64,000 nucleotides of DNA, from the NCBI GenBank assembly GCA_021828475.1, contig JAJZIY010000012.1, positions 1,010 to 65,009 on the forward strand, read 5' to 3'. A program made the position numbers and the translations under genes. This stretch comes from Actinomycetes bacterium (lineage in GTDB: Bacteria; Actinomycetota; Acidimicrobiia; Acidimicrobiales; Palsa-688). The notes under the pieces were generated by a model, which was given only the letters and a program-made list of their open reading frames with translations, did no database searches and was not told the origin of the DNA. This document shows, piece by piece, positions 39,759 through 46,111 of this stretch; within the stretch, counting starts at the first letter, position 1; every line of letters begins with the position of its first letter.

Positions 39759-39832
39759 TGGAGCCCGGGAGGAGGATCGAACTCCTATCGCCTGATTACA
39801 AGGCAGGTGCTCTACCATTGAGCTACCCGGGC
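39759..39832 (-). tRNA. tRNA-Thr (anticodon UGU), CCA encoded
   Basis: Manual cloverleaf: GCCCGGG-TA-GCTC-AATGGTA-GAGC-A-CCTGC-CTTGTAA-TCAGG-CGAT-AGGAG-TTCGATC-CTCCT-CCCGGGC-T-CCA. The acceptor, D and T stems are perfect. There is one C-U mismatch at 31:39 and a 4-nt variable loop. Confidence 0.85.
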
Positions 39833-41704: not shown

Positions 41705-42517
41705 TCAGTGCGGCGGCGGCCAGCCTGCCCGGGCGAGGATCGTGCGGATGACGGTCTCGGATTGGGGGGACAGCTCTGCCAGGGGGCGGTTGCGGTGGCG
41801 GCGCTCGCCCAGGTCGCACTGGCCCAGCGCTGCGAGCCCGTAACTGCTCGCCAGGTCGACCAGCATGGCGACCTCGACCCCGTAGCCCGGCTCGAAGTCG
41901 AGCTTCTCCAGGGGCGCCCGGCGCCCGGCGACTTCGCCGGCCAGGGGCTGGTCGAAGGCGGCCAGCTGGGGGAACAGGATGCGCAGGAGCGGTTTGGCGG
42001 CCAGCTCGGTGACCCGTCCTCCCTCTCCGGGGCGGTCTGCCAGCGGCCGCCTGTAGGAGGCCTTCACGAAGACCAGGTCAGGGTCGGACAGCAGGGGCCC
42101 GACCAGGCCGACGACGAAGCCCGGATCGAACCCCTCGATGTCGGCGTCCAGATAAACCACGATGTCGCCACGTGTCTGGTCCAGGCCGCTGCGCATGGCC
42201 CGGCCCTTGCCGGCGGCGCGCTGGGCGACGACGACGGCACCCGCCTCCCTTGCCACCCGTGCGGTCGAGTCGGTCGAGCCGTCGTCCACCACCACCAGTT
42301 CGTCGACCAGCCGGTAACGCTCCATCAGCTCGGCGCGTACCGCCCCAGCGACCCGGCCGACGGTCGCCGCCTCGTTGCGCGCCGGGATGCACACCGAGAT
42401 GCCGGTCGCCGCTTCCTGCTTGAGGGCAGCCAGTCTCCCGGCGGCGAACGAGCCGCCGTGGTAGCTCCTCAGCACCCGCCCACTCTGCCACGCCGTCGTG
42501 CCATGCCGTCGTGCCAT
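41705..42517 (-). CDS. gpgS: glucosyl-3-phosphoglycerate synthase (GT81)
   Basis: Contains ISVCIPARNEAATV, VVVDDGSTDST, VYLDADI and TELAAKPLL. I prefer ATG 42517 (MARRHGTTAWQ), because the track start 42595 would run into the riboswitch. Confidence 0.85.
   Translation of the reverse strand: MARRHGTTAWQSGRVLRSYHGGSFAAGRLAALKQEAATGISVCIPARNEAATVGRVAGAVRAELMERYRLVDELVVVDDGSTDSTARVAREAGAVVVAQRAAGKGRAMRSGLDQTRGDIVVYLDADIEGFDPGFVVGLVGPLLSDPDLVFVKASYRRPLADRPGEGGRVTELAAKPLLRILFPQLAAFDQPLAGEVAGRRAPLEKLDFEPGYGVEVAMLVDLASSYGLAALGQCDLGERRHRNRPLAELSPQSETVIRTILARAGWPPPH
42492..42517. repeat. 13-nt perfect tandem duplication GCCGTCGTGCCAT x2 (plus a 5-nt partial third copy) spanning the gpgS start
   Basis: 42492..42504 and 42505..42517 are identical. 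This creates two ATGs (minus strand) 13 nt apart, hence in different frames. Confidence 0.9.
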
Positions 42518-42591
42518 GCCGTGATCCGAGGGCCTGCGCCGCGAGGTAACGGCTGGCGGGACTTTCGCACCGGTCCTAACATTGGGGTACA

Positions 42592-42692
42592 TCATCCAGA
42601 GCGGCTGAGGGACGGGCCCGACGACGCCGCGGCAACCAGTGAGCTCGGCCGTTGGGCGGGGCGGCGCATGGTGCCAATGCCCGAGCCGATGA
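42592..42692 (+). promoter_or_regulatory. SAM riboswitch aptamer (SAM-I core without P4; SAM-IV or SAM-I/IV-like)
   Basis: UCAUCCAGAGCGGCUGAGGGACGGGCCCGACGACGCCGCGGCAACC-N32-GGUGCCAAUGCCCGAGCCGAUGA matches the conserved SAM-I core nearly base for base. The P1 3' strand abuts SD GAGGAGG (42691..42697) and GTG 42702. Confidence 0.75.
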
Positions 42693-42701
42693 GGAGGCAG
42701 T

Positions 42702-43943
42702 GTGCCGTTCGTTGAGGGACTTCGTTGTCGTGAGTGTGCGCGCTCCTATCCCGCCGAGGCGCTGCACGTCTGCGAGTGGTGCTTCGGCCCGCTCGAAGTG
42801 GTCTACGACTACGAGGCGATCACCGCTTCGACGTCGCGCCAGCGCATAGCCGCCGGCCCGAGGACCATCTGGCGCTATGCCGACCTGCTGCCCGCCGGGG
42901 CGGAGGGCGCCGTCGACCTCGGTGCGGGCATGACACCGCTGCTTCGCGCCGACCGCCTCGGTGCCGAGCTCGGCCTGTCGGACCTGTGGGTGAAGAACGA
43001 CACGGTCAACCCGACCGGCTCGTTCAAGGACCGGGTCGTGTCTGTGGCGTTGACCAGGGCGCGCGAGCTCGGCTTCAAGGTCGCCGCCTGCGCCTCCACC
43101 GGCAACCTGGCCAACTCCGTGGCCGCCCATGCGGCCAGGGCGGGCATGCGTTCGGTGGTGTGCATCCCCGCCGACCTCGAGGTACCCAAGGTGGTGAGCA
43201 CCGGCGTCTTCGGGGGCTACCTGGTCGCGCTCAACGGCAACTACGACGACGTCAACCGGCTGTGTGCCGAGCTGGCGAGCGAGTACCCCACGTGGGCTTT
43301 CGTCAACGTCAACGTGCGCAGCTACTACGCCGAGGGCTCCAAGACCCTGGCTTTCGAGGTCGCCGAGCAGCTCGGCTGGCGTGCTCCCGACCACGTCGTC
43401 GTCCCGATCGCCTCCGGCAGCCAGCTCACGAAGATCGCCAAGGGCTTCCGCGAGCTCCACAAGGTCGGTTTGCTCGACGACGAGCCTCATGTGCGCATCT
43501 CGGGAGCCCAGGCGGCCGGGTGTTCGCCCGTGGCCGACGCCTTCGCCAGCGGGGCGGACTTCGTGAAACCGGTGAAGCCGACGGGCATCGCCAAGTCCCT
43601 CGCCATCGGGAACCCGGCGGACGGGGGGTACGCCCTCGACGAGGTCAGGCGTTCGGGTGGTGCCATCGGCGCGGTCACCGACGAGGAGATCGTGGAGGGC
43701 ATCAAGCTCCTCGCCCGGACCGAGGGCGTCTTCGCCGAGACGGCCGGCGGTGTGACCGTCGCCGTGCTGGCCAAGCTCGCCGCCGCAGGCGTGGTCAAGC
43801 CCAACGAGAGAGTGGTCGCCTACATCACGGGCAACGGCCTGAAGACGCTGGACGCGGTGGCAGCCACCTGCGGGCCGACGGTGACGGTGGCGCCAAACCT
43901 CGAAGCCTTCCAGGCCGCCGTGCACGTGGCAGACTGGCAGTGA
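42702..43943 (+). CDS. threonine synthase homologue (PLP fold type II) with an N-terminal CxxC-x11-CxxC zinc ribbon; candidate sulfur-carrier-dependent homocysteine synthase
   Basis: Contains MPFVEGLRCRECARSYPAEALHVCEWC and the PLP lysine motif TGSFKDRVVS. 413 aa. It lies downstream of the SAM riboswitch and upstream of a MoaD-like gene. Confidence 0.85.
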   Translation: MPFVEGLRCRECARSYPAEALHVCEWCFGPLEVVYDYEAITASTSRQRIAAGPRTIWRYADLLPAGAEGAVDLGAGMTPLLRADRLGAELGLSDLWVKNDTVNPTGSFKDRVVSVALTRARELGFKVAACASTGNLANSVAAHAARAGMRSVVCIPADLEVPKVVSTGVFGGYLVALNGNYDDVNRLCAELASEYPTWAFVNVNVRSYYAEGSKTLAFEVAEQLGWRAPDHVVVPIASGSQLTKIAKGFRELHKVGLLDDEPHVRISGAQAAGCSPVADAFASGADFVKPVKPTGIAKSLAIGNPADGGYALDEVRRSGGAIGAVTDEEIVEGIKLLARTEGVFAETAGGVTVAVLAKLAAAGVVKPNERVVAYITGNGLKTLDAVAATCGPTVTVAPNLEAFQAAVHVADWQ

Positions 43944-44016
43944 CCACCTCGCCGGCCGCCCGGGCGTCGCTGGTGGTCGCTTGCCGGTTCCCGTACCTCT
44001 CAGGAGACACGCCCAG

Positions 44017-44295
44017 ATGAGCGTCAAAGTCCGTATCCCCACCCAGCTCAGGTCCCTTTCCGGCGGCGCAGGCGAGGTGGAGGTGGAGGCGGCGACCGTG
44101 GGGGACGCCCTCCGGGCGCTCGACTCCGCTCACCCCGGTTTCGCTGAGCGCCTGTTCGACGAGGGTGGCGGACTGCGCAGGTTCGTCAACGTCTTCATGG
44201 GCGAGGAGGACATCCGGTTCCTCGACGGCCTGGGGACGCCGACGCCGTCGGGCTGCACCGTCTCCGTCGTGCCTGCCGTCGCCGGCGGACAGTAG
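44017..44295 (+). CDS. MoaD/ThiS/CysO-like sulfur-carrier protein ending ...VPAVAGGQ
   Basis: ATG 44017 follows CAGGAGA. 92 aa: MSVKVRIPTQLRSLSGGAGEVEVEAATVGDALRAL...VSVVPAVAGGQ. It has a beta-grasp-like length and a GG motif with one extra residue. Confidence 0.8.
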   Translation: MSVKVRIPTQLRSLSGGAGEVEVEAATVGDALRALDSAHPGFAERLFDEGGGLRRFVNVFMGEEDIRFLDGLGTPTPSGCTVSVVPAVAGGQ

Positions 44296-44411
44296 GGGCC
44301 GCCCAGGGGCTGCCGGCCCCGGCCACCCACCACCGCCCGGGGGCCGGTCCCGTCGCTTTTTCAGCCCTCCGAGGCGCAGCTTGCGCGCGAACCGCCCGTT
44401 GCGGTGTACTG

Positions 44412-46111
<1,700 letters not shown>

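Follow-up and report, generated by a model that had tools for sequence, protein, structure and literature searches.

What kind of S-adenosylmethionine (SAM) riboswitch precedes a threonine synthase-like gene in a member of the Acidimicrobiales, and how might it act on that gene when the P4 helix is missing from it? The question is raised by a 64,000-nucleotide stretch of an Actinomycetota genome (contig JAJZIY010000012.1 of assembly GCA_021828475.1, positions 1,010 to 65,009, lineage Palsa-688), referred to here as the window, in which a structured element on the plus strand lies immediately ahead of a gene starting at 42702. We consider it likely that window positions 42589-42697 form the complete 5′ untranslated region (UTR) of a metM-metO gene pair and consist of a SAM-I riboswitch without P4, through which SAM would repress the initiation of translation.

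The aptamer and its missing P4 helix

The whole 64-kb window was scanned on both strands with all 4227 Rfam families, and only two matches exceeded their gathering scores, one to a tRNA and the other to the SAM-I riboswitch (RF00162). The SAM-I match at 42589-42695 on the plus strand scored 60.6 bits against a gathering score of 44.4 (E = 1.4e-11), and its alignment spans model positions 1-108 with 23 nt inserted in the P3 loop. A second, permissive scan by E-value, restricted to 42400-42900, ranked SAM-I first within the SAM clan, with one lower-scoring match from the same clan suppressed. An earlier note on this DNA, made from the sequence alone, had proposed a SAM-I core at this place and had named the lack of a covariance-model hit as refutation; RF00162 matches above its curated threshold. 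P1, the P2 arm with its kink-turn (K-turn), P3, and the pseudoknot strand of J3/4 were all located where that note had put them. The sequence that it quoted is present as well, although it starts at 42591 rather than at 42592.

Examination of 80 loci encoding homologues of the downstream protein, sampled with one genome per species, provided related leaders for comparison. The window and 39 Actinomycetota loci (L001-L038 and L042) made up a set of 40 sequences. A SAM-I match of 51-76 bits in Rfam lay directly upstream of the orthologous gene at 38 of the 39 loci, and at the remaining one (L030) the aptamer fell just below the Rfam threshold and was recovered by its structural pattern. The AGA of J1/2, the A-U and U-A pairs of P1, and GCAACC/GGUGCC of P3, which we take from crystal structures to be the SAM-contacting core, match the model consensus in the window and are invariant in the 40-sequence alignment.

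The 40 leaders were aligned with MAFFT, and base pairs were counted on the P4-less SAM-I structure. Pairing was found in 90.4% of the cells, and 12 pairs changed on both sides. Not one of 500 column shuffles reached any of the five covariation measures, and sliding the 3′ partners by 1-3 columns lowered pairing to 35-44%. P2a and P2b were each 100% paired, the former with compensatory changes at three of its five pairs and the latter with one G-C to C-G swap. Both GA dinucleotides of the K-turn were invariant and the helices flanking it covaried, while PK-1 was again 100% paired, with one position occupied by GC in 35 sequences, AU in three, CG in one, and GU in one. The proximal pairs of P3 were invariant, save for an A as the second base in 6 of the 40, and its distal pairs showed 10-12 double changes each. 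Four of the five pairs of P1 were invariant in 40/40 and the fifth was U-A in 37/40, so that P1 is near-invariant in this set and hence uninformative for covariation; a compensatory P1, UUAUC/GAUAA, was encountered at a metagenome locus (L140). Supplied with no structure, RNAalifold recovered the P1 core (4 pairs), P2a, P2b, and distal P3. With the full alignment, it mispaired the 3′ strand of proximal P3 with the PK-1 strand (GGUGCC/GCCC), a pairing that was given no weight because all of the bases involved are invariant.

The six leaders with A at the second base of P3 (L004, L006, L007, L014, L028, and L030) read GACAACC and place an A-C mismatch opposite an unchanged GGUGCC. The mismatch is recurrent and uncompensated and is situated beside the ligand pocket (alignment columns 46/103, corresponding to G42632-C42674 of the window).

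The absence of P4, also claimed by the earlier note, was confirmed in the window and in the 39 related loci. When aligned with RF00162, the window RNA lacks 19 consensus positions of P4 and has 3 nt instead; between CCCG (42680-42683) and the 3′ strand of P1 there are only AGC and C42687. In each of the 40 sequences, the PK-1 strand and CGAUGA are only 1-3 nt apart. C42687 and G42679 are both invariant (40/40), and the two may form the sole surviving, outermost pair of P4.

In the SAM-IV and SAM-I/IV classes, P4 is replaced by a 3′ hairpin together with PK-2, a pseudoknot that the P3 loop forms with the 3′ tail (PMC6890682). To look for PK-2, we took the longest complementary stretch that each P3 insert shares with the 60 nt following P1 and set it against 300 shuffles for every sequence. 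The complementarity equaled that of shuffles (median p = 0.65), with a single sequence of the 40 below 0.05 and with positions that were inconsistent from one sequence to the next. An 11-nt match between the P3 insert and the tail of the window itself, lying across the start codon, had p = 0.12 and was not conserved. RNAalifold found no consensus pairs (0) that would form a hairpin 3′ of P1, whether a relocated P4 or a P5, in the 60 nt after P1 of 36 tails of the type A leaders defined below. The P3 inserts are 13-47 nt long in the 40 sequences and fold back on themselves. Given the want of a PK-2 signal and of conserved 3′ pairs, the RNA is a three-way-junction SAM-I riboswitch in which P4 has no substitute.

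Two pairings in the window were considered and rejected, these being a GGCA-GUG-UGCC hairpin at the start codon and the CGAUGAG/UUCGUUG pairing of the minimum free energy (MFE) fold; neither was conserved among the relatives.

The main axis of variation among natural RF00162 members is the deletion of P4, and a "group of Actinomycetota" in the alignment of that family has a P4 described as "very short or no" (PMC12714719, Nat Commun 2025). The same work reports that SAM aptamers can be functional without P4 and that switching with SAM was observed for designed P4-less aptamers by selective 2′-hydroxyl acylation analyzed by primer extension and mutational profiling (SHAPE-MaP). The window RNA is still filed as SAM-I because P4 is dispensable within the family, as its P4-less members from Actinomycetota indicate. 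The earlier note had likened the loss of P4 to SAM-IV and SAM-I/IV; the likeness extends to the missing helix itself, but the 3′ hairpin and PK-2 that replace it in those classes are absent here, and the K-turn and PK-1 are kept. As judged from its sequence, 42589-42695 belongs to the SAM-I family, in a three-way-junction form, rather than to SAM-IV or SAM-I/IV. Table 1 lists its parts along with the neighboring features.

Table 1 Positions of the aptamer, its parts, and neighboring features in the window
Feature	Position	Strand	Remarks
Promoter-like TGGCGG (42554-42559), 17-nt spacer, TAACAT (42577-42582)	42554-42582	+	putative, deduced from sequence
SAM-I aptamer, P4-less three-way junction	42589-42695	+	RF00162
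P1 5′ strand UCAUC	42592-42596	+	pairs with GAUGA 42688-42692
J1/2 CAGA (SAM-I consensus aAGA)	42597-42600	+	A, G, A invariant in 40 sequences
P2 arm	42601-42630	+	P2a, K-turn, P2b, loop
P2a GCGGC/GCCGC	42601-42605 / 42626-42630	+	
K-turn, UGA opposite GACGAC	42606-42608 / 42620-42625	+	
P2b GGG/CCC, loop ACGGG	42609-42611 / 42617-42619, loop 42612-42616	+	
PK-1 CGGG (P2 loop) / CCCG	42613-42616 / 42680-42683	+	
P3 GGCAACC/GGUGCC	42631-42637 / 42670-42675	+	whole arm 42631-42675
P3 distal extension, 32 nt	42638-42669	+	self-pairing
GGUGCCAAUGCCCG	42670-42683	+	read from sequence
J3/4 remnant: AAU, G42679, CCCG, linker AGC, C42687	42676-42687	+	occupies the place of P4
P1 3′ strand GAUGA	42688-42692	+	
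Shine-Dalgarno sequence GAGGAGG	42691-42697	+	shares its initial GA with the end of the P1 3′ strand
metM-like gene, ThrC-family pyridoxal phosphate enzyme, 413 aa, GUG start	42702-43943	+	TIGR00260, PF00291
metO Shine-Dalgarno sequence AGGAGA	44002-44007	+	
metO-like gene, ThiS/MoaD-family carrier, 92 aa, ends ...PAVAGGQ	44017-44295	+	PF02597, NF041918
Terminator-like hairpin and T-run after metO	44338-44362	+	pattern scan, consensus match only
groEL	44432-46111		after the terminator-like hairpin
tRNA gene	39762-39832	-	Rfam, 66.7 bits

The leader and its possible mode of control

The GGAGG at 42693-42697 follows P1 without a gap, and after 4 further bases comes the GUG start codon (42702-42704), 9 nt after P1, in agreement with the earlier note, which had the 3′ strand of P1 running into the Shine-Dalgarno (SD) sequence and the GUG start. 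GAGGAGG matches the actinobacterial anti-SD sequence. In 28 of the 40 leaders, 9-11 nt separate GAUGA from the start codon, and GGAG(G) comes directly after GAUGA. Leaders of this kind are termed type A; in most of them GGAG(G) adjoins GAUGA, and the invariant juxtaposition GAUGA-GGAG(G)-N4-7-start was present in about 30 of the 40 species. A pattern scan of the sequence between the aptamer and the start codon revealed no intrinsic terminator, for which there is also no room.

A generic sigma-70 scan found no promoter, and a relaxed, homolog-guided search was needed. With this search, 28 of the 39 related leaders were found to have a -10-like hexamer whose end lies 7-11 nt ahead of the P1 core, 22 of which also had a -35-like TTGAC/TGGC motif 17-18 nt upstream; the coding-region control gave 0 matches. 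Transcription of the window leader is predicted to start probably at about 42589, the 5′ edge of P1, so that the whole 5′ UTR would comprise the aptamer and the SD sequence.

The divergent gene upstream encodes a glucosyl-3-phosphoglycerate synthase. Its longest open reading frame (ORF; 41705-42595, minus strand) has an ATG at 42595, inside the aptamer, and the NCBIfam match sets in well downstream of it, at residue 16 of a version that starts at 42517. This gene probably starts at 42517 or lower, which would leave about 70 nt to be shared by the two divergent promoters.

Beyond the family membership, architecture, conservation, covariation, and gene context shown here, we infer that the window sequence binds SAM, that the direction of control is OFF, and, from the layout of the leader, that the action is at translation initiation, SAM-dependent control of this step being the mechanism that would fit best. 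Indirect support for SAM binding comes from the methionine-pathway genes that follow the aptamer (metM/metO here, metE and metH in relatives) and from the SAM response of designed P4-less aptamers. Abundant SAM would bind the conserved core and lock P1. The locked helix would draw in two bases of GAGGAGG and hold the compact aptamer flush against the remaining GGAGG, and 30S binding would be hindered by both the SAM-stabilized P1 and the compact aptamer, yielding a translational OFF switch. Initiation would then fall on metM and on the co-transcribed metO. At low SAM, P1 would open and the SD sequence would be freed. The regulated enzymes would make homocysteine from O-phosphohomoserine and a thiocarboxylated carrier, and the switch would therefore provide feedback repression of methionine and SAM synthesis.

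The regulated genes and the wider methionine regulon

The 413-aa enzyme encoded directly downstream of the aptamer scored 287.6 bits with the thrC equivalog TIGR00260 (cut-off 167.1) and fell below the cut-off of NF006050, an equivalog covering the Zn-ribbon form (286.9 versus 303). The protein has an N-terminal zinc ribbon with four Cys residues (CxxC...CxxC). Its closest PDB relatives are threonine synthases, and the PDB threonine synthases align with it only from about residue 55, as they lack this N-terminal extension. The close homologues that carry names are from metagenome-assembled genomes of Acidimicrobiales, and all are labeled threonine synthase. Cyanobacterial homologues are about 60% identical to the window protein; they belong to a group reported to be 51.6% identical to MetM of Streptomyces albulus (PMC12172450).

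In at least 31 of the 40 loci, metM is followed by a ThiS-like ORF ending in AVAGG, mostly with 0-2 further residues. In most relatives this ORF overlaps metM by 4 nt; in the window, the two genes are 73 nt apart. Among 37 downstream ORFs of the relatives, 25 end exactly at GG, and a few end in GGSH, GGLA, GGI, GGAL, or GGSR. The MetO-like protein of the window ends in GGQ (44284-44295), and C-terminal trimming would therefore be needed before thiocarboxylation; a hydrolase, Mec, is listed for MetO maturation (GapMind 2026).

MetM and MetO of S. albulus are described as converting O-phosphohomoserine to homocysteine (Hasebe et al. 2024, Appl Environ Microbiol 90:e01247-24, as related in PMC12172450 and bioRxiv 10.1101/2024.10.14.618325), and metM of that organism has a SAM riboswitch upstream (PMC12172450). 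MetM is "often misannotated" as threonine synthase (GapMind 2026). On the basis of gene context, synteny, and these secondary citations, the gene pair in the window appears to match MetM/MetO. The pairing of a ThrC-like enzyme with a ThiS-like carrier also bears out the placement, in the earlier note, of the downstream "threonine synthase" in methionine metabolism. The labels carried by the Acidimicrobiales homologues would then mean that MetM-type enzymes are systematically misannotated in Acidimicrobiia.

Examination of the more distant relatives revealed that MetM-like genes of Chloroflexota (L043, L052, L053, L057, L072, and L080) are preceded by canonical SAM-I riboswitches with P4, scoring 67-88 bits and having P3 inserts of up to about 78 nt. 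The MetM-like gene is therefore SAM-I-controlled in two phyla, with different aptamer architectures, since P4 is present in Chloroflexota and absent in Actinomycetota. No Rfam riboswitch was found before the relatives from Cyanobacteria, Armatimonadota, Nitrospira, and Aquificaceae (L041, L044-L051, L054-L056, L058-L071, and L073-L079).

A scan of metagenomes for the P4-less signature, made independently of the SD sequence and of the gene, returned 120 stretches. Many held type A leaders of metM, and others held leaders of a second kind, type B, in which a 7-bp P1 is followed by 55-150 nt with conserved hairpins before the SD sequence. Type B leaders precede metM-like genes and genes for MetE (L100, L131) and MetH (L116, L160), with Rfam scores of 58-77 bits and with the proteins identified by NCBIfam. 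Pfam applied to 45-residue N-terminal fragments identified MetE alone, and full-length NCBIfam searches identified both MetE and MetH. Because the P4-less aptamer stands before metM-like, MetE, and MetH genes, it is a property of the lineage that serves the methionine regulon and is not peculiar to metM.

Type B loci include L026:2438-2505, L032:1841-1910, L036:2411-2475, L100:7041-7100, L131, L116, L160, and about 30 further metagenome loci. Their 3′ element reads AGCC-N3-(G/A)GCGG-loop-CCGC(U/C)-N3-GGC, followed by GCGCUC-loop-GAGCGC-GUCGAG. Compensatory changes were seen in it by eye (GAGCGG/CCGCUC versus GGCGG/CCGCC, and CUCGAG..GUCGAG versus CUCGCG..GCGAG). Overlap of the two helices hints at alternative pairings, and the CCGCUC of the element is complementary to the GAGCGG of the aptamer itself. 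The element matched no Rfam family at E <= 10, and inspection by eye found no PK-2-like complementarity to the P3 loop; it is probably an undescribed expression platform.

Two of the metagenome contigs carry a pair of P4-less SAM-I aptamers, on the same strand and with near-identical 3′ elements in L092, and on opposite strands about 1.1 kb apart in L096; evidently, several methionine-regulon operons cluster there. Directly downstream of other P4-less SAM-I aptamers (Rfam 58-70 bits) are ORFs that had no NCBIfam match at E <= 1e-5 (L133:4003-5073, minus strand; L138:156-1016, plus strand; L152:2-1012, minus strand), which are candidates for further, unannotated genes of the SAM/methionine regulon. 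The L152 ORF shares an N-terminal ...ARFFDSRAAY... motif with one in L145.

Competing explanations and known systems

Several observations weigh against a SAM-repressed, P4-less SAM-I leader of the kind proposed here. P1 takes in only 2, possibly 3, bases of the SD sequence, and any occlusion would therefore be steric for the most part. Of the P1 pairs in the Rfam model, the outer three mostly do not form in the 40 leaders. Folding of the single leader sequence gave z = 0.59, which is uninformative for so GC-rich a sequence, and the unconstrained MFE structure (-59.8 kcal/mol) is not the aptamer fold, which reached -51.7 kcal/mol under constraint, in a calculation that has no pseudoknot or ligand terms. 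The affinity of SAM-I for its ligand is also stated to drop as P4 is shortened (Heppell 2011, as cited in PMC12714719).

The small SD overlap bears as well on a different account of the switch, in which aptamer and ligand are the same, SAM alters Rho-dependent termination or mRNA decay, and the effect on translation is secondary. The apparent position of the aptamer at the 5′ end of the transcript would let P1 set whether that end is single-stranded, which could change its exposure to RNases that attack from the 5′ end, and the type B leaders, with 55-150 nt and extra hairpins before the SD sequence, show that this aptamer works with other platforms. We nonetheless regard such control as unlikely, since the type A juxtaposition in about 30 of 40 species fits selection for SD proximity, and a paired 5′ end normally stabilizes mRNA, which would make SAM an activator, the wrong sign for a biosynthetic gene. 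It is considerably harder to sustain that the enzyme is a true threonine synthase and that the riboswitch divides O-phosphohomoserine between the threonine and methionine branches. The TIGR00260 score, the names of the homologues, and the best PDB relatives all agree with that function, but repression at high SAM would have the wrong sign for such branch-point control, the NF006050 score is under its cut-off, and the same type of aptamer stands before metE and metH. An adjoining gene for a ThiS-like carrier with a GG terminus, in most cases overlapping by 4 nt, is moreover the signature of MetM/MetO, and MetM is, according to GapMind 2026, frequently misannotated as threonine synthase.

The two remaining explanations concern the RNA itself. 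That it belongs to SAM-IV (RF00634) or SAM-I/IV (RF01725) is suggested by the missing junction P4, as in both classes, and by the lower-scoring match of the same clan that overlaps the SAM-I match. We hold this to be highly improbable, given that SAM-I scores best in the clan, that the defining PK-2 is absent, that no conserved pairs exist 3′ of P1, where coding sequence begins after 9 nt, and that both a six-nucleotide K-turn and PK-1 occur here and are conserved. The lack of P4 and the short P1 might also be expected of a decayed, non-functional SAM-I remnant left after P4 loss. Such decay is scarcely credible alongside compensatory changes seen in 40 species with MetM proteins of just 68-87% identity, an invariant core, the occurrence of the same form before several methionine genes, and the ability of designed P4-less aptamers to switch with SAM. 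A SAM-I riboswitch acting on translation initiation of metM-metO is thus the reading that we retain.

Both P4-less SAM-I riboswitches of Actinomycetota (PMC12714719) and the metM riboswitch of Streptomyces (PMC12172450) are already in the literature, and a P4-less metM riboswitch does not overturn current understanding. What is added here is the lack of a PK-2 or P5 substitute, the covariation, the junction of P1 and SD sequence at the predicted 5′ end, and the presence of this form across Acidimicrobiia. As a tentative suggestion, the Acidimicrobiia-type element could represent the minimal natural architecture of the SAM-I/SAM-IV clan, an uncharacterized sub-class, and possibly an intermediate from SAM-I to SAM-IV. 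If so, a form devoid of P4, PK-2, and P5 would be used lineage-wide for metM-metO, metE, and metH, and type A leaders would operate without a separate expression platform, with a transcript that begins at P1 and an SD sequence that abuts it. Should the natural P4-less members be biochemically uncharacterized, they would form a distinct and experimentally untouched sub-class. A P4-less SAM-I wired to a ribosome-binding site would also serve as a compact natural model for the contributions of P4 and PK-2. For annotation, the riboswitch acts as an independent flag that the "threonine synthase" belongs to the methionine pathway, and it would help to annotate the MetM/MetO route throughout the Acidimicrobiia, an abundant group of uncultured soil and freshwater bacteria.

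The closest structural counterpart of the window RNA, found in an Acidimicrobiales host, is the subgroup of SAM-I from Actinomycetota with a short or absent P4 (PMC12714719), which shares with it P1, J1/2, P2a, the K-turn, P2b, PK-1, P3, and the core positions, as well as the missing P4. Textbook SAM-I riboswitches of Bacillota and Thermoanaerobacter have a four-way junction, whereas the junction in the window is three-way and P1 is only 5 bp; in contrast to the textbook form, the window leader has no terminator or antiterminator, its SD sequence abuts P1, and the aptamer is probably at the 5′ end of the transcript. Minimal overlap with the SD sequence, of which a ligand-stabilized helix takes in the first bases alone to gate translation without a separate expression platform, is found in the preQ1-I riboswitch of Thermoanaerobacter. 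That comparison is an analogy of mechanism only, as ligand, fold, and family are unrelated.

SAM-IV (RF00634) resembles the window RNA in its occurrence in Actinomycetota, the lack of a junction P4, PK-1, a short P1 (4 bp by cryo-electron microscopy), and presumed translational control, but has a P5 hairpin 3′ of P1, PK-2, and a 4-nt turn in place of the K-turn (PMC6890682), none of which are found in the window RNA. SAM-I/IV (RF01725) shares the binding core of the SAM clan and the missing junction P4, but its P2 is unbroken, with neither K-turn nor PK-1 (PMC6890682), and it has a 3′ helix and PK-2; the window RNA has both the K-turn and PK-1. In gene content and ligand logic, the nearest system is the SAM riboswitch of metM-metO in S. 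albulus, which governs the same genes in a Streptomyces host, as compared to Acidimicrobiia here.

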